Source: an uncultured virus (IMG/VR IMGVR_UViG_2061766007_000542)
Taxonomy: Duplodnaviria; Heunggongvirae; Uroviricota; Caudoviricetes
IMG/VR virus record: IMGVR_UViG_2061766007_000542
DNA: 29,183 nucleotides
Strand: one strand, 5' to 3'
Below the pieces are notes generated by a model. That model was not told where the DNA came from. It made no database searches and was given only the letters and a program-made list of their open reading frames with translations. This document shows positions 12,336-28,948 of this stretch, in pieces. How positions within the stretch are numbered: position 1 is the first letter of the stretch; the number at the start of each line of letters is the position of its first letter. The translations under genes and the position numbers were made by a program.

Positions 12336-12362
12336 AAAGAGGAGGAGAGATTTCCTCCCCTC
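12336..12362 (-). terminator. Possible intrinsic terminator after the capsid gene
   Basis: Stem GAGGGGAG/CTCTCCTC (one G-U) with loop GAAAT and a weak T-tract. Confidence 0.5.
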
Positions 12363-12373
12363 AAAAATATTTA

Positions 12374-13237
12374 CTAAGCAATAGCTGTAATCTCTGCTTT
12401 TACAAGTTGTTCTCCATTTTGGTCAAATACTTTTCCTCCATGTGCTACTTGTCCTAATAAGTTGTAGTACATTCCAGCTTCTGCTTCAGTTACTTTTGCT
12501 TTTACAAGCTGTCTTACATAGTTGAAAGCTTTTGCTCTGAAAGCATAAACATTTGTAGAAGTGATAAGATTTGATTCAAAGATAGAGAATCCTCCAAATT
12601 TTCCTAACCATCCTTCTACTGCTGCATCAGCTGCTACTTCTGTTCCAGCCAAGATTCCTGCTTGTGCAATAACTGCTGAAACATCAGGAGATACTACAAG
12701 GATTCTATTATTCATAGGAACATCTTTTTTAGAAAGTGCTGTTCTCAATCCCATAATATCTTTAGCAACCGTTGAAACAGACATTGAAGCGATAGTCTGA
12801 ACTTGACTTGAATGAGCTGTAAAGTAAGCATCAAGCATAGTGATAATTGAAGTTTCTACAGCTTCATCAATACCGTTTACAAGGTCTTTCATTCTTTCAC
12901 TTCCGATATTGTAGAGAGTTTGGATTTCTTCAAGGTCTGAGAATTTTTCTCTGTATTGATGCAATTTGTTAATTACAAGGTCAGAGTGAGTGATTGTTCT
13001 ATCACTTGCTGTAATATCAGCACAAGAAGTAGCTTTAATATCTCCACTGTTCAAAGCTGAAACATCTGTAAGAGAGATTTTTGGACTTACTGGAACTGAA
13101 ACAGTATCTCCAGCTCTTCTTAAAGTTCCTTCAAATTCGTAGTTAGCGAATCTCATAAATGGTTTTCTTGGATCGTCAGACATTTTTCTTCTCAATTCTG
13201 CTGCGACAATCTGTGTAATTTTATCAGTATTAGCCAT
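12374..13237 (-). CDS. Major capsid protein (P22-coat-like), 287 aa
   Basis: NYEFEG..RAGDTVSVP, LSKKDVPMNNRILVVSP, GWLGKFGGFSIFESN and HGGKV motifs. Located after the scaffold. Intact even in code 11. Confidence 0.9.
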   Translation of the reverse strand: MANTDKITQIVAAELRRKMSDDPRKPFMRFANYEFEGTLRRAGDTVSVPVSPKISLTDVSALNSGDIKATSCADITASDRTITHSDLVINKLHQYREKFSDLEEIQTLYNIGSERMKDLVNGIDEAVETSIITMLDAYFTAHSSQVQTIASMSVSTVAKDIMGLRTALSKKDVPMNNRILVVSPDVSAVIAQAGILAGTEVAADAAVEGWLGKFGGFSIFESNLITSTNVYAFRAKAFNYVRQLVKAKVTEAEAGMYYNLLGQVAHGGKVFDQNGEQLVKAEITAIA

Positions 13238-13285
13238 AATAATATAAGTTTAAAAGATAAATATTCCTTTGGTTGTTTGTTGTTG

Positions 13286-13450
13286 TTAGTCTTCTTTTGA
13301 CTGTACTTTTGCTTTACCTTCCTTGATTTCCTTTTCTATTGCTAAGAACTGGTCTCTTGGAAGAACTGCTAATTCTTCTTCTGTCCATACTTTAACAGAT
13401 TTCTTTTCTGTTTTTACTTCTTGGACTTCTTTTTCTTCTTTAATAGCCAT
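13286..13450 (-). CDS. Small protein resembling a scaffold C-terminal coat-binding motif, 54 aa
   Basis: MAIKEEKEVQEVKTEKKSVKVWTEEELAVLPRDQFLAIEKEIKEGKAKVQSKED, between scaffold and capsid. Confidence 0.65.
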   Translation of the reverse strand: MAIKEEKEVQEVKTEKKSVKVWTEEELAVLPRDQFLAIEKEIKEGKAKVQSKED

Positions 13451-13458
13451 TTCTTTTG

Positions 13459-13995
13459 TTAATCATTTAAAATTTTTATTTCTCCTTTTTCTGCTTTACT
13501 TGCTATCGTTGCATAAGCAGTTGGATTTTTTTCTGCAAGTTCAGCTATTTCAGAATAACTGTACTCCTTCTTTTCGATTTCTGAGTCAATTTTCTCCCTT
13601 CAAGGATTAGTGTTTACGGTACTTGTTGGAGTACTCACTTGATAGTCAGAGATTTTTAGACATTGTTCCCGTGTTAAGTCTGGATATTTCTCTTTAACAG
13701 ATTTGATTTCCTCTGGAATCACATCAAATCCATTCTTTGCTGAGAAAGTGATTTCATCTCTTAAGTTCTTTTCGAGAGTCTCTTTGTCGACCTCTTGATT
13801 CTCTCTTTGTGCAATATCAGCTTTCTTAAAAGCTTCTTTTGCTTGTTTCTTTTTCTGATCATATTTCTCTTTAGAAACATAGTTGTTTTCAACTTCTTCT
13901 TTAGAGATATACTTCTCAGAAAGTTCTTCTCTTGAGATAAAATCTTCTTGATTGAATTCTTGTTCACTTCAATCATCATACACGATTTTTGGCAT
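13459..13995 (-). CDS. Probable capsid scaffolding protein, 178 aa
   Basis: Charged helical protein upstream of the capsid gene; open with TGA=Gly. Confidence 0.7.
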
Positions 13996-14028
13996 CGCTT
14001 ATTCAGTTAGTAGATAAAAAAGTGTTGA

Positions 14029-14307
14029 TTAGTGGTCACCCTCCACCGATATATCAGATTGATTACTGATCCTTGTTAAAAGATATTCTGGAATCTTTAA
14101 GAACTCATCAATTAACTCTAATTCTTTCAGCTCCATATCTCTTTTGTTATAGATGGACTTACTCCTATCTTCACTGATTCAAGATAGAATGCCAGCTTTT
14201 AATTCTTCTTTTCTATCCTCTAAATATTGTTTGATAAATTCCCAATATTGAGAAGATAGTCAGTCTTTTATTGTTCCAATATCCTTTTTAGCTAAATTGA
14301 GAGACAT
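14029..14307 (-). CDS. Small helical protein following the portal, 92 aa
   Basis: MSLNLAKKDIGTIKDGLSSQYWEFIKQYLEDRKEEL...; overlaps the portal stop. Confidence 0.7.
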
Positions 14308-16270
14308 CGTTTCATGAAGTAGGTCATAAAGCTTGAGGTTGTGCTTGTTCCTTATTATTCTGTGAAATATAATTACTTACAAGCTGATTTTGTGTTGCAT
14401 CGTTTCCTTGTGCCATTCCTTGTTGCATAGCCATTGCTTGTTGTTGTCAGCTTAAGATTAAAGCTTGTCTTCTTTTCATTATTGCTTTTGTCTTTGCTGG
14501 TCAATCAATAGCCTTTTCATACACTTGAATATAAATCTTGTGATTTTCTCCCATATCTGTGATAGGTCAGACATCTTCTCCATTGTTTAAGAGTTCAAGG
14601 TCAAGCATTGCTTTATCATATTCTGGAGGGAAATCATAAATCGTATTTACAAGCTCTGAATCCATTCCCATCACATTTGCAAATTCTCTCGTAAGTTGGA
14701 TTTTTCAAAACTCGTTTGCTTGTTCCATTAAAGGTTGATAAGATGCCATAAATGCACTTTTAGTTGCTTCTGTTTTATCTTGTGCATCGAGTATCGTTAT
14801 AAGTGACATATGTAAATCTCTTTTCGTATCTAAGTCTTTTCCCATGATGGTATAAGTCACATCTCAGAAACCACTATTTAATACAATGTTCTTTTCAGAC
14901 TTCATTTTGAAATACTTTTGATAGCTTCTATACCATAGAACATCCCAATATTTCTTTTCTCCTCGTAAGAATACTTTGAAAATAGTTGTAAGTCTGACAT
15001 TTTGATTAGCTTGTAGTAATTGACTCTGTGTAGCGGTAATTGTTTTAGCATATACTCCGATACTTTGCTCGTCAAATCCTATTTCTTTTGTACTTTTAGC
15101 ATCTATCATATTTTTGAGATTGTATCCATCTCCAGTTGAAGAAGTTTGTGTTTGGACATTTTTTATAATCTCTCTATTTTCAAGATTTCATTTTGAAGGG
15201 ACATATTTTCTCTTTCAGAGTTGTCTGTGTGCTAATTCTTTTCAGTCAACCACATCACTATTAAAGACAGTAATTCAAGAGAAAGTTTCCTCATGAATCT
15301 TATTGATTAAGAGATTCATTACTTCTTCTTCGCTCTCTTGATTATCACTCGCTAAATCTCCTACACATAATCCATAAGGATCTCATTTCTTAGGAAGCAA
15401 CCAACTATGAACTACTGGACATGGAATAAGAGTAGCATCTTTTTTCTCCTCTTTTCTTACAGCTTCTACTTCTTCACATCTTATTAAAAGAGTTCTATCG
15501 TTCGCCCATTCTGTAAGATACCACCTTCCATTGAATTTTGTAAAGTGTCTATAAACGGAATATTGTTTTAAAGGAGATTGATAAGTGTTCCACATTCCAT
15601 CGATTCCATAACCATCAGCTCGTTGGAGTAAATTGTTATGATAATCGCTTCCTAATTTTTCTTTTAGATCTTCAAGCTCTTCATCAGTAAGCATAAGCTC
15701 TTTATTCTTATAGAGTTCGTTTATTTCTTCTTCAGAAAGTACAAGCTCAAATCCGTGAAAGTTAAAACCTTTTACTACATCAAAGTAAGGATCAGGAATC
15801 CAACACATAGGAGAATAAAGTCTTTTCTTTGGAGATTCTGTTATATAATCCCAACCTTCATCGACTGCAAGATAAACTCCATAATCCACTTCATCAGAGA
15901 TTTTTTGATAAGTGATGATTTCTTCATCTAATTCCTCATAATCAAACTTCAATAATTTATTCCAAGTTTTAGCATATTCATCATCGCCCCTTTTTCTTCC
16001 TTGAAATTCTACAAGAGGTCTATTCTTATAAAGTGCAGAGATGAAAAGATTCCTGTAAGTATACATTGATTTACTCTTTACAACATCACCGTCTTTTATT
16101 CCTTTTCAGTCTACATTGTATTGAGAAAGATACTTTTTTAAAAGAGGTCTTTTTACTCTTGCGACTTCTGCTCAAGCGGTATATTCATTTTCTACTTTCT
16201 GCAAAATTTCCTCAAAGTCCCAACCTTTGATTTTATCTATCATTTTTTTTGTTATAAAGTTGTTTACCAT
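14288..16270 (-). CDS. Portal protein, 660 aa
   Basis: Frame joining track ORFs 15383-16066 and 14864-15109. CWIPDPY and TITATQSQLLQ motifs, Gln/Met-rich C-tail, follows terL. Alternative start at 16243. Confidence 0.85.
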
Positions 16271-16304
16271 CTTCTTTGTTTTAAGTATCAAATTATTTAC
16301 GGTC

Positions 16305-16332
16305 AGTATAATCAAAAATTCAATTTTGGCGG
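16305..16332 (-). promoter_or_regulatory. Late-promoter motif copy 3 (CCGCCA-16 nt-TATACT)
   Basis: Upstream of the portal gene, immediately after the terL terminator. Confidence 0.7.
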
Positions 16333-16342
16333 AAAATAAAAT

Positions 16343-16379
16343 AAAAAAAAATCTGACTCTTATTTTCAGTCAGACTTTT
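16343..16379 (-). terminator. Intrinsic terminator after terL
   Basis: Minus strand reads AAAAGTCTGACT-loop-AGTCAGATTTTTTTT. Confidence 0.65.
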
Positions 16380-16416
16380 CTTCTTTTTTTGTCTTTTTTT
16401 ATCGAGAAAAATACAA

Positions 16417-17706
16417 TTATCGTGATTCTATGATTTTTCATTTCTTCACATTTCCCTCAAACACTTCACAAACAACCGCTAAATATCTAAAAGCATCAGA
16501 AGAGTGAGAACTCCAATCGTGTTCTGGTCACTTAAAAGAAGTTCTTTTTTCATCAAACTCTTTATGATAATTCTTCAAACATTTTCGCCCTCGTTCTGTT
16601 TTCTCTTTATCGAAATAACATCTTGGAAGTATTGCTCTTGCTGAATTGATTCCATCTAGAACAGAAAGTTTAGGAACTATTTGAACATCATTGAAACCGT
16701 ATTCATACATTTTCTCTTCTACGGTTTTTCAAGTCTGTAAACTTCTTGCTTGTGCATCGTGTGGGAGTCGCACCGTTCAATATCTATAACCTTTCTCTCT
16801 TAAAACTCCTACATAATGAGAAAGTCATTCTCAATTATTCTCATAATGGTCTATTACTCTTATTTCTCTTCCGAAGATTTGGAAGAATCGAATAGCTGTA
16901 CTATCGTTTATTCCTAAATCTCGAACCGTGAAAACATCAAGGGCAGGATCATAAGGAACTTTTGTTCTTTGACCGTTATTTTCCAATTGACTCAGTATTT
17001 CTGCATAATAACTACCATTGATTCAAGCATCAAAAGAGCAATAATACTCTTGTTGAAAAATTGCATCATTTCCATTTTTTTGGATTATTTCTCTTCTTTC
17101 TCATTCAAGAACTTCTGGAGCGATTGCTTTTGTATCTTCTACCGTTTGAATTGATACAAGCCGTTTGTCGTTATCTTTTGCCATATCTAAAAGTTCTTTT
17201 GCATGATTATCTCATCTTGGAGTAAAGTTGAAAATCGCCCAACCTCCATTCTCTGCAAGAATAGGACGGAGAAAATCTCGCACCACTGGACTTTGTAAAG
17301 AGTACTCAGAGAAAACAATTCAGATTGGATTTGTCCCAACGATACTATCTACATTATCAGACCCTATGATTTGGATAATACTTCCATTGATTAGCTCTAT
17401 TTTCATTTCTGTATCGTTCTTTCTGCTTACCAATTCATCTGGAATATGTTTGATAGTTTTCCAACCATCTTTATCGATTCCATCTCGGACGGCCTTCTTT
17501 CATTGTGAATAAGTAGGGAAAACATAATAATAAATTCAGACTTCTTCCATTGCTTTCTTTACTATTACATTGAAACAAGCTTTATCTTTTCAAGCCCTAC
17601 GATGCCAAACCATAATAATTCTTTTTACTCCTTCATCTATTGCTTCAAAGATTGGTAATTGATAATCTCTTGGTTCAAAATGATAAGGAATTGTTATTTC
17701 TGTCAT
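16417..17706 (-). CDS. terL: Terminase large subunit, 429 aa
   Basis: Walker A WHRRA(G)KD; GTNPI(G)IVFSEYSLQSPVV(W)DFLRPILAENGGWAIFNFTPR(G); nuclease TV(W)DLGINDSTAI(W)FFQ; HDWSSHSSDAFRYL. Bracketed residues are TGA (G) or CGA (W). Confidence 0.95.
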
Positions 17707-18119
17707 TTTTTATATGAAATAATGTTAATATTTAAAGAAGTGTCTGACTCTACTTTATCGATATACATTTTATGATACTTTCAGAGTTTTTCTAATGCTG
17801 AGTTTACATTTTTAAGATCATAAATCTTTTGAGTTTTTCCTTTCAATTCTATTTCTTGTCTTCCCATTCCTATTTCTACGATCTCTTGGAGATTTTGTAA
17901 AACATACTCAACTCATACATCTAATTTTTCTACTTTCTTTTGAGATTTCTCTGTTAGATACTCTGAAACCTTAACATTACTTAATAGTTTACATCATAAA
18001 GCTTCTGCCGATTTTTGGCTTACTCAGTAGACTTTCTTATAAGCATCAGTAGCATTGAAGCTTTTTAGATATTCCAGACAGAACATCTTTTGCTTTTGAG
18101 TTAAATCTTTCGTCTTCAT
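17694..18119 (-). CDS. terS: Terminase small subunit, 141 aa
   Basis: LTQKQKMFCLEYLKSFNATDAYKKVYG..KLLSNVKVSEYL..ALEKLGKYHKMYIDKVE; overlaps the terL start. Confidence 0.9.
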
Positions 18120-18150
18120 TTTTGTCGTTTATGATAATAAAACATTTGAG

Positions 18151-18178
18151 AGTATAATCAATTTTTAGATTTTGGCTA
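18151..18178 (-). promoter_or_regulatory. Late-promoter motif copy 4 (TAGCCA-16 nt-TATACT)
   Basis: Upstream of terS. Confidence 0.7.
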
Positions 18179-18180
18179 AA

Positions 18181-18205
18181 ACAAAAAGGGAAACCTAATT
18201 CCCTT
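18181..18205 (-). terminator. Intrinsic terminator AAGGGAA/TTCCCTT plus T-tract
   Basis: Inverted repeat 18186-18205 followed by TTTGTTTT on the minus strand. Confidence 0.6.
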
Positions 18206-18264
18206 AATGCCTAACAGTCATAAGATGACAAAAACGAAACAACATCTCCCAAAGGAGCAACACT

Positions 18265-18292
18265 AATATAATCATTTTTTAGAAATTGGCTA
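18265..18292 (-). promoter_or_regulatory. Late-promoter motif copy 5 (TAGCCA-16 nt-TATATT)
   Basis: Overlaps the stop of the HTH gene; same spacing as the other copies. Confidence 0.6.
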
Positions 18293-18602
18293 AATTTTTT
18301 TCTACTTTATCAATATTTTTTACATTATTCTTGAACTTATTTAGGATCACATCTATTTTGCTATGATGCACTCCTAAGAGGTATGATATTTTTCTTGCTG
18401 AGATTTGTTGTCCGTCTACATATTCGTAGTCAAAGTATAAATCAAAGAGAGTATCATGGATTGCTTCTTTTTGATTGCTACGAAAGTATTTTGTTAGTGA
18501 TATTACATAAGGGATTGAATAAGTGATTATTACTCGATTATCCTTTACTGCTTCTCAAAGGATTCATTTTTTAAATAGCTTTTTACATCTTTCATCTATC
18601 AT
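18279..18602 (-). CDS. HTH protein (sigma70 region-4-like), candidate late transcription activator, 107 aa
   Basis: C-terminal YVDGQQISARKISYLLGVHHSKIDVILNKF helix-turn-helix. Last gene before terS, the usual position of late activators. Confidence 0.65.
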
Positions 18603-18645
18603 TTATAAAACAAAAGAAATAAAAATCTGATTATTTTAAAGAGGT

Positions 18646-19347
18646 TTATAAGTCTGAATTTTTCATACAATCTCTATTAAGATATTGTTCTTTATGTGTT
18701 GCCCACCTGCAATTATCTTTACAATAATCTCAATTACAATCTATCCTATCAATAGTTGTTTCTTTTTCTCAAAACTCTTTACAATGTTTTTCATATGATT
18801 CTCACATATCTCTAAAAAACTCTTCAAAATTTTTCCACTTACATTTTATTCATTTGTCGAAATAATGTTTCTTTCAAGAATATCATTTCGTTCTTCATAA
18901 AATATCACACCAAATAGTATATATTCTCATATCTCTTGTCCTTTCTACTCAATATTTTCTTTTAGTTTTCATAACATCTACACAAATACATCAACAAGAT
19001 TTAGTGTGTCAACTTATAAGATTTTGAAGATATGTTGTAATAATATTTCAGCATTCACATTGTGCAGTTATAACTCTTCTTTTATTCTTAGGTGTTTCTT
19101 CTGATATTATTGTTAATCTTCAATACTTCTTTCATATAATTTCTTTATGTTTTTTATTTACACAACTACATCAAGAAATATTTCATTTTAAAATATGATA
19201 TGCTCTTGTTTCAATTGTTTTTCAACATACATTACACCTGCAAATTAACCATTGATGATATCAAGCCTTTTTTCATAATCATAAAATTGTTAATCATCAA
19301 TATGTTTTTCAGATTGTATCCTCAAAATTTATTTTTTTCCCTCTCAT
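18646..19347 (-). CDS. HNH homing-endonuclease-like protein, 233 aa
   Basis: Two Cys-rich repeats (IGKKYGRLTI..CECGN..NLISGHTKSCGC), IYTIWCDI and TIDRIDCNGDYCKDNCRWATHKEQ. Contains 22 in-frame TGA and is invisible in code 11. Confidence 0.9.
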
Positions 19348-19853
19348 ATTTTTTGTTTTTTTGTTTTTATATAAATATGCCACTTTTCAACCATCTCCTC
19401 ATATTCTCATTGAGATATTTTTACAGTTTCATTATCGTTTCGATAAATTGCTTCTTGTTTTTTTCATACTGTTTCATCCATAAACACCTTATAATCTCTA
19501 TAATTTCCGTGTTTTGTTACATTACAAGTATAACATTGAGGATAGACTTGATTTATATCAAATCTATATTTTAAACATCACCTTGATCTATAGTGTCAAG
19601 CCTGTATTTCTCTTCGAAAAAATCTTTTTTTACAAGTGCAACATTCGCACATTCATTTATCATCAGAATAATACAACCTTACATATTCTGAAAAAACTCT
19701 ATCTGCTAAGTCTTTCCAAGAGTCTCGATTTTTATAAGTTTTGAAAATATCATTTCGTAACTCTTGGTTTTTAGTTTCTTCGAACAATTCTTTTGCTTTT
19801 TTTGTTTTAAAAAGATTGTTTATTCTTTCTTGAAGAGTTTTTCTTTTTTTCAT
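19329..19853 (-). CDS. ninG: NinG/Rap-like recombination endonuclease, 174 aa
   Basis: ADRVFSEYVRL..GMCECCTC..F(W)REIQAGHYRSR..RFDINQVYPQCYTCNVTKHGN. Confidence 0.85.
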
Positions 19854-24271: not shown

Positions 24272-24550
24272 ATGAGAAAAAACCGATTATTGATAATTTG
24301 TATTATCTTGATGATTTTAGGTTGTATTGGATTCTGTGTAGGATTCAAACCATCGGATAATGATACTTTAGAAGAAGTAGCAAAGCTAAAAGAAAGACTT
24401 GACCAAATAAATGAATCTATTTCTTTCAATAGTGATGAATGGAAAAGACTTGAAGAAAGTCAGAAAGACCTTGAGAAAGGGAATGCAGAACTAAGAAAAG
24501 AAAAGGAAGCAACAGAAACAAAGATTAAAAACCTATTGGGTTTAGGGTAG
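24272..24550 (+). CDS. Membrane-anchored coiled-coil protein, 92 aa (0-frame product)
   Basis: N-terminal hydrophobic helix and coiled coil; ends just after the slippery heptamer G GGT TTA. Confidence 0.8.
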   Translation: MRKNRLLIICIILMILGCIGFCVGFKPSDNDTLEEVAKLKERLDQINESISFNSDEWKRLEESQKDLEKGNAELRKEKEATETKIKNLLGLG

Positions 24551-28219: not shown

Positions 28220-28948
28220 ATGAAAGAGATAAAGGAGCTATTTGAAAGATGAATAAAACACTGATATTCTCCGACTGATGTATTTGATGATTTCTTGAAT
28301 GTAACGATTTTAAGTATCATAGACATAAACAAAACGGAGGAATACGAAGAAAACGAGAAAACATACGAGAGAATAATCAAAAAATATGATTGAGATGTTG
28401 AAATGTTTTCAAAAATACTTGCTTGTTTTGTGAAAAAAATGGAAGAAACACAAGAAACATTAAAGGATTGGATTTGAGAATATTTTATGCAAGAAATATC
28501 ACACGGAGAACATTGACAGTTTTTTACTCCTGATCATATAGCTCATCTTTGTGCAGAAACGACGATAAATAAATTGACAGAAGAAAAGAAATTCCCATCT
28601 TATATGGATTGTGCTTGTGNNNNNNNNNNCGGTCAATTCTTTACTCCAGATCATATAGCCCACCTTTGTGCAGAAACGACGATAAGTAAATTGACAGAAG
28701 AAAAGAAATTCCCCTCTTATATGGATTGTGCTTGTGGAAGTTCAAGAATGCTACTACAAGCTCAAAGACTTAAGAGAAGGAAATCATACGGAACAGATAT
28801 TGATAGAAGATGTGTTTTAATGAGTGTCTTTAATCATTTATTCTATGGATTGATTGGATGCTTTACCGTATGAAATACCTTAATGAATGAAAGGAAAGAA
28901 GTATTTGAAGTTATGCCACCTTTCATTTACCACAAATCATTTAATTAA
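28220..28948 (+). CDS. N6-adenine methyltransferase-like (HsdM-like, short) protein; internal segment duplicated across N gap
   Basis: IGEYFMQEISHGEHGQFFTPDHIA, MDCACGSSRML, YGTDID and GNTL; ends VMPPF..TAA. Confidence 0.75.

Follow-up and report, generated by a model that had tools for sequence, protein, structure and literature searches.

How can a single phage genome, in which one of the stop codons means glycine, hold one gene that never uses the reassigned codon and another that uses it for nearly every glycine? This question is raised by the IMG/VR record IMGVR_UViG_2061766007_000542, a tailed-phage piece of 29 kb with 32% GC (29,183 nucleotides; this whole stretch is called the window below). 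The two genes are the major capsid protein gene (12374..13237, minus strand, 287 aa; PHROG 267 major head protein, E 1.5e-18), whose profile also matches solved capsid structures (best 8e16, E 1.3e-12), and a free-standing HNH endonuclease gene (18646..19347, minus strand, 233 aa; PHROG 374, E 3.1e-45, no Pfam match). An initial annotation had described an extreme stratification of TGA among the genes of the window. A balance of mutation and selection on a constitutively reassigned codon explains both genes, a reading to which we give a probability of about 0.8; on this view the capsid gene shows codon optimisation of an ordinary kind, applied to a codon that has been reassigned, and the mobile gene at the opposite extreme has drifted.

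Glycine codons of the capsid and HNH genes

The genetic code of the phage is that of the Absconditabacteria (code 25). Open reading frames (ORFs) of at least 100 codons cover 0.89 of the window when TGA is read through, compared with 0.30 in code 11. When the large terminase subunit was aligned with seven standard-code homologues, its TGA columns held glycine in 55 of 91 aligned cells, its CGA columns held tryptophan in 25 of 56 cells and its CGG columns in 7 of 7. This double reassignment, TGA to glycine and CGA/CGG to tryptophan, is that of the Absconditabacteria (PMC8629427). TGA is present in 36 of the 40 window genes, early and late and in both arms, and these genes thus need TGA to be glycine. 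Neither the window nor 21 further loci, the remainder of the record (G000) among them, yielded a tRNA gene.

A recount of both genes confirmed the hand counts of the initial annotation exactly. The glycine codons of the capsid gene are 16 GGA, 1 GGT and no TGA (0/17), and those of the HNH gene are 22 TGA and 1 GGG (22/23, or 24/27 if the gene is read from an upstream ATG at 19410). In the remaining 31 tested window genes, TGA accounts for 258 of 529 glycine codons (0.49). Against this background the binomial probabilities are 1.2e-5 for 0/17 in the capsid and 1.7e-6 for at least 22/23 in HNH; with overdispersion allowed in a beta-binomial model they become 5.6e-5 and 3.0e-5, and both deviations hold after correction for 33 genes. 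The stratification therefore stands as far as these two outliers are concerned, but it is not graded: the other genes are nearly homogeneous about 0.49 (beta-binomial alpha 29, beta 30), and among 27 window genes the TGA share was correlated neither with the optimal-codon score (rho -0.24, p 0.22) nor with GC content at four-fold sites (GC4; rho -0.03) or at synonymous third positions (GC3s; rho -0.28, p 0.16).

The GC4 values of the capsid (3/114) and HNH (1/38) are the two lowest in the window, yet their TGA use is opposite. The neutral TGA share expected from each gene's own silent sites is 0.94 for the capsid (observed 0/17) and 0.92 for HNH (observed 22/23), and under this composition model the capsid count has a probability of about 1e-12 even at g=0.10. 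Since the model fits HNH and excludes the capsid, the absence of TGA from the capsid gene is not due to AT content. The possibility raised in the initial annotation that AT content explains everything thus holds at the HNH end and fails for the capsid.

The codon avoidance of the capsid is not specific to TGA. When capsid genes were compared with six other phage genes, TGA fell from 0.61 to 0.06, ATA from 0.49 to 0.06, AGG from 0.16 to 0.03, CGA from 0.21 to 0 and TAT from 0.80 to 0.33, and TTC, TAC and AAC were raised. The window capsid itself has 0/21 ATA and 6/8 TAC. The C-ending codons TTC, TAC, AAC and CAC reach 0.62 in the capsid versus 0.2-0.46 in the other genes, which is the opposite of drift. 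The shifts resemble those of host EF-Tu (rho 0.73 over 53 codons other than those for glycine and tryptophan), and the optimal-codon score of the capsid gene is the highest of 33 window genes. That the capsid lacks CGA and CGG, as the initial annotation had stated, is true; in a single gene with one tryptophan this says little, and over 25 related capsids CGA/CGG make up 0 of 28 tryptophan codons.

TGA in capsid genes of other phages and in host genes

The terminase was used as bait for relatives, so the capsids were not chosen for lacking TGA. On the terminase-baited contigs that hold both genes, TGA accounts for 18 of 290 capsid glycines versus 299 of 485 terminase glycines, and the capsid was lower in 16 of 16 cases; the initial annotation had considered that capsids of relatives might use TGA at the genome-average rate, and this came out otherwise. 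When loci from terminase and capsid baits were pooled, 25 distinct capsids had TGA at 27 of 456 glycines (per-capsid range 0-0.17); the putative portal gave 500/793 and the terminase 440/698 in these relatives. The related capsids share 68-89% protein identity, their four-fold p-distance has a median of 0.26 and a maximum of 0.58, and their 27 TGA codons are spread over 9 alignment columns. Thus TGA arises in the capsid gene and is then held low. Most of these capsids carry 1-3 TGA codons and are therefore unreadable in code 11.

Seven of seven distant code-25 capsids also lay under their own background TGA share, six of them at p<0.05. The counts were 1/23 (background 0.37), 0/15 (0.62), 5/27 (0.63), 9/29 (0.56), 2/21 (0.36), 6/16 (0.85) and 10/17 (0.74). 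Four of the seven were found by a capsid query, which may favour TGA-poor genes, and three were not (the second phage of record G000, G066:C8 and L035). A further capsid match, G001:C38, was excluded from this set because its whole contig is TGA-free. This phage contig (L233), where a single one of 13 long ORFs has TGA, belongs to a TGA-rich Absconditabacterales bin and is either a code-11-compatible phage or a binning contaminant. G066:C8 (L192-L194; capsid 5/27) is a code-25 phage or prophage of 43.7 kb, the integrase of which is the closest to that of the window (43%).

For the host side, 141 genomes of the order were reached by a motif scan, and ribosomal and background regions were sampled from 32 genomes picked for long contigs, for spread of rplB TGA counts or for phage-like matches. 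The background came from a mechanical ORF call on 4-80 kb of each genome, among which spurious or highly expressed genes may be present. The comparison with host ribosomal-protein genes that the initial annotation had proposed went in the expected direction: of the 30 genomes that had sufficient codons, 24 showed a ribosomal-protein TGA share under the background (medians 0.26 vs 0.39, p 0.002). For EF-Tu the share was under background in 27 of 28 genomes, with medians of 0.04 vs 0.39, and was at most 0.10 in 17. CGA/CGG made up 1 of 25 tryptophan codons in EF-Tu, 101 of 521 in ribosomal proteins and 1019 of 2811 in the background. Across host lineages the ribosomal-protein TGA share ranges from 0.01 to 0.80 and is highest in AT-rich genomes. 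Thus the idea that TGA is disfavoured in the most abundant protein is borne out: the avoidance is conserved, is not driven by AT content and is common to host EF-Tu and ribosomal proteins.

Two further observations were made on host genes. In the rplB genes of 135 host genomes, the number of TGA codons in the L2 N-terminal domain ranges from 0 to 8. The pyruvate phosphate dikinase gene of G064 (L196:14546-17179) is TGA-poor, with 9/76 against a background of 0.69, which suggests that this enzyme is very abundant.

The decoding machinery was inspected in the same order of bacteria. Two single-contig host genomes, a strong avoider and a heavy user of TGA, each carry one tRNA(TCA), one Gly(TCC) and one Gly(GCC) gene; as all three are single-copy, gene number cannot rank them. 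The TCA tRNA has glycine acceptor pairs and U73, and its loop carries G37/C38 versus A37/A38 in Gly(TCC). A strict pattern with position 37 left free (A or G) found it in 18 of 141 genomes, and all 18 have G37/C38; position 32 is C or A (e.g. G060 L354:45-118; G009 L364:1880-1953), and ARAGORN labels this tRNA-Gly(UCA) as tRNA-SeC. Anticodons with A36 normally want a modified A37. In five of five genomes of the order, the only class I release factor found scored below the prfB cut-off and carries a PxT motif, which we take to be the signature of release factor 1 (RF1), and RF2 was not found in any of the five. With one tRNA(UCA) of glycine identity and only RF1 found, UGA is a constitutive sense codon.

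The HNH gene and the competing explanations

The HNH gene is the most AT-rich gene of the window (GC 0.25), with 0/12 AAC and 0/12 TAC; all four tryptophans are TGG, with no CGA/CGG. It is a free-standing gene, predicted to encode a mobile endonuclease, and occurs patchily between conserved flanks. No HNH homologue was present between the upstream NinG/Rap-like gene (19329..19853, minus strand; PF05766, E 4.2e-15; 6/8 TGA) and the conserved 107-aa ORF on the downstream flank (18279..18602, minus strand) in 22 loci from 15 contigs of relatives, and in two of the relative contigs these flanks lie only 31 and 45 nt apart. The gene is thus an insertion; homologues sit at other sites. Contigs from four DNA runs cover the head genes and leave the middle of HNH without cover, none being joined across it, and are thus uninformative on the presence of HNH.

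Among 70 distinct HNH homologues examined, only the five in clearly code-25 contigs were counted. Their TGA shares are 17/21, 12/14, 12/16, 12/12 and 19/24 (together 72/87), each above its locus background. With a GC4 of 14/169, the composition model gives about 0.84 for these five genes, versus 0.83 observed. Because the TGA shares of HNH and its homologues match the composition model, drift accounts for the saturation of HNH with TGA, and the gene has most likely simply drifted towards this codon.

The mutation-selection balance could work as follows. AT-biased mutation would turn GGA into TGA, and glycine codons free of selection would drift to about 80-95% TGA. Genes for abundant proteins (the capsid and host EF-Tu, and ribosomal proteins in most lineages) would keep TGA low, along with ATA, AGG, CTA and CGA, a depletion for which the codon statistics are clear. 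As these statistics suggest, a minor tRNA may decode UGA more slowly or with less accuracy, at a cost that scales with protein output. Expression would be high for the capsid and low for HNH; the latter, as a recently inserted, AT-rich and presumably weakly expressed mobile gene, would stand at the drift end with its TGA codons unselected. The simpler alternative already named in the initial annotation, AT drift towards TGA countered by translational selection, is of this kind and fits both ends.

Several points weigh against it. There is no TGA gradient among the intermediate window genes. The neutral expectation comes from a crude composition model, and g=0.14 (raw GC3, the GC content at third positions) gives a probability of 0.006 for at least 22/23 in HNH. 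The 25 close capsids share kinship and are not independent events, and in one distant capsid (G057:C12, 10/17 vs 0.74) the depletion is not significant. Ribosomal proteins fail to fall under the background in 6 of 30 hosts, and in several AT-rich lineages 55-80% of their glycines are TGA. The tRNA(UCA) of some TGA-rich lineages is almost identical to that of strong avoiders; thus the tRNA alone does not set the bias, and may explain the cost of UGA rather than the differences between lineages. A search of the 141 genomes for the phage's own host gave no clear spacer or close prophage: the best match to the window integrase is 43% identical, capsid matches are distant as well, and matching by codon profile was ambiguous (best for EF-Tu: G126, G086, G065). 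Finally, the abundance of the capsid is taken from gene identity and the decoding cost from codon statistics.

A bolder version, to which we assign a small chance, starts from the G37/C38 loop: tRNA-Gly(UCA) would be an intrinsically poor decoder, and UGA would serve code-25 cells as a built-in expression dial, eliminated from bulk proteins and actively kept in mobile nucleases that are toxic, to dampen them. If so, UGA-Gly and CGR-Trp would be second-class codons, and the lineages whose ribosomal genes use TGA freely would be those with selection too weak against AT drift.

It is likewise unlikely, and slightly more so, that HNH genes are kept full of a slow codon to limit a toxic nuclease, as the initial annotation had suggested in speaking of throttled expression. 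The HNH gene of the window does stand out from the other genes there (beta-binomial P 3e-5), six of six code-25 HNH genes lie above their locus background (the five others with 72/87 vs 814/1272, p 2.7e-4), and among the 77 background genes of G064-G066 that have 15 or more glycines, not one reaches 0.90. Still, the AT content of the gene's own silent sites predicts such a share (0.92, against 22/23), the gene is AT-drifted throughout, as its AAC, TAC and tryptophan codons show, and in TGA-rich hosts 3 of 81 ordinary genes stand at 0.90 or above. Both explanations forecast the same direction, and drift does so without an extra assumption. Nor does the saturation look like a barrier to translation in standard-code cells, also proposed initially: none of the four HNH tryptophans is CGA/CGG, and 36 of the 40 window genes already carry TGA.

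A recent import of the capsid gene from a standard-code phage, or its maintenance in a code-11-compatible form for a second host, is very improbable. The gene does read identically in code 11, TGA-free phage DNA occurs in code-25 bins (G001:C38), and code-11-compatible phages of these hosts have been reported by Liu et al. (PMC10746230). However, the related capsids have diverged as described, with TGA in nine columns, most of them would break in code 11 as would the 36 window genes that need TGA as glycine, and unrelated capsid families show the same pattern. A GGAG/AGGA/GAGG motif precedes only 4 of 40 window starts, neither capsid nor HNH among these; with its AT-rich leader free of this motif, the capsid gene does not resemble a standard-code cassette.

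Even less can be said for local AT content as the only source of both ends, without selection on the capsid. HNH is the most AT-rich gene and the capsid is among the most GC-rich (0.36), and in host genes GC content and TGA share are related with a rho of -0.57, which is partly circular because GGA itself adds G; the GC4 of the capsid, with its prediction of 0.94 against 0/17, refutes this for the capsid, and the rise of its C-ending codons to 0.62 runs contrary to drift. A stage-specific recoding switch as in TAG- or TGA-recoded phages of standard-code hosts, for which an uneven distribution of the recoded stop among genes is a signature according to Borges et al. (bioRxiv 2021.08.26.457843), is scarcely credible here, given that early and late genes alike carry TGA, scans of the window, of the remainder of G000 and of related loci gave no tRNA gene, the second reassignment matches Absconditabacteria with no RF2 in five of five genomes, and the late gene concerned, the capsid, avoids the codon rather than using it.

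Neighbouring features and relation to known systems

The other features of the head-gene region also lie on the minus strand. A terminator-like hairpin (12342..12362), identified by consensus scan only, is located directly past the capsid stop codon; terminator-like sites in the window are not above chance (3 observed vs 2.3 +/- 1.6 in shuffles), and the promoter and terminator scans of the window gave nothing informative. The capsid is preceded by a 54-aa ORF without a PHROG family (13286..13450; 0/1 glycine as TGA, 6/21 in relatives). At higher coordinates lie a putative scaffold gene (13459..13995; 2/4 TGA), so labelled from position and composition, and a putative portal gene (14288..16270; 14/42 TGA), so labelled from position, neither with a family match. 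The large terminase subunit (16417..17706; PHROG 2, E 7.7e-26) has 13/32 TGA, and CGA/CGG account for 9 of its 13 tryptophans. The small terminase subunit (17694..18119; PF03592, E 4.3e-23) has 5/8 TGA; in relatives it is TGA-rich, with 205/248 (0.83), level with the HNH class though it is a conserved core gene.

Elsewhere in the window, a membrane-anchored coiled-coil ORF (24272-24550) is TGA-free too (0/6), and a methyltransferase-like ORF at 28220-28948 contains a segment that is duplicated on either side of a gap in the assembly, which is probably an artefact of assembly. Past a run of N, record G000 holds a second code-25 phage with its own terminase, capsid, integrase and ERF (L228, L229); two phages have probably been joined, or binned, into one record.

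The structural genes of phages use host-preferred codons (Lucks et al. 2008, PMC2266997), and in gene transfer agents translational selection is strongest in the major capsid gene (PMC9765227). The capsid described here behaves likewise, being richer in host-preferred codons with shifts that track host EF-Tu. Unlike in those phages, the common codons most strongly avoided are the reassigned TGA (glycine) and CGA (tryptophan), and TGA is the majority glycine codon elsewhere in the genome. In Blastocrithidia, in-frame reassigned stops are depleted in highly expressed genes, including those for ribosomal proteins, which was read as a translational burden (PMC12153298). The depletion in ribosomal proteins is shared, with expression judged here from gene identity; the Blastocrithidia case differs in its eukaryotic nuclear code, dual-meaning UAA and mass-spectrometry support, whereas here the code is bacterial and UGA, read by a tRNA of its own, has a sense meaning only.

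Among the genes of code-25 phages of Absconditabacteria/Gracilibacteria, about 90% contain TGA in frame (Borges et al., bioRxiv 2021.08.26.457843). The present phage agrees with these and with those of Liu et al. 2023 (PMC10746230) in using the same host code, with TGA in 36/40 genes and no code-switch machinery. Liu et al. considered that dense TGA may be codon optimisation to an abundant alternative tRNA; unlike the whole-genome treatment in these two studies, the per-gene data oppose TGA as an optimal codon for most sampled lineages. In gut phages that recode a stop and infect standard-code hosts, structural and lysis genes are enriched in recoding, and a timing switch was proposed (Borges et al.). 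The use of a recoded stop is gene-specific in both cases, but in the present phage the recoding is constitutive throughout the host, and TGA is depleted in the capsid. Per-gene TGA avoidance for code 25 was not found in the literature surveyed (the supplements of Liu and Borges being outside its scope), and the available parts of PMC3787670, PMC2704378, PMC4032931 and PMC8080830 are silent on expression-dependent use of a reassigned codon.

Altogether, a TGA-free capsid gene is not evidence for code 11 or for a standard-code host. The share of TGA could act as a proxy for expression in uncultured code-25 bacteria, and host lineages, whose ribosomal-protein TGA share runs from 0.01 to 0.80, form a natural series on which mutation-selection models of code change could be tested. 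In most of the Absconditabacterales sampled and in their phages, the reassigned stop remains a non-optimal codon even if no other glycine codon is commoner, which favours AT mutation pressure, and not a translational advantage, as the force that spread UGA-Gly.

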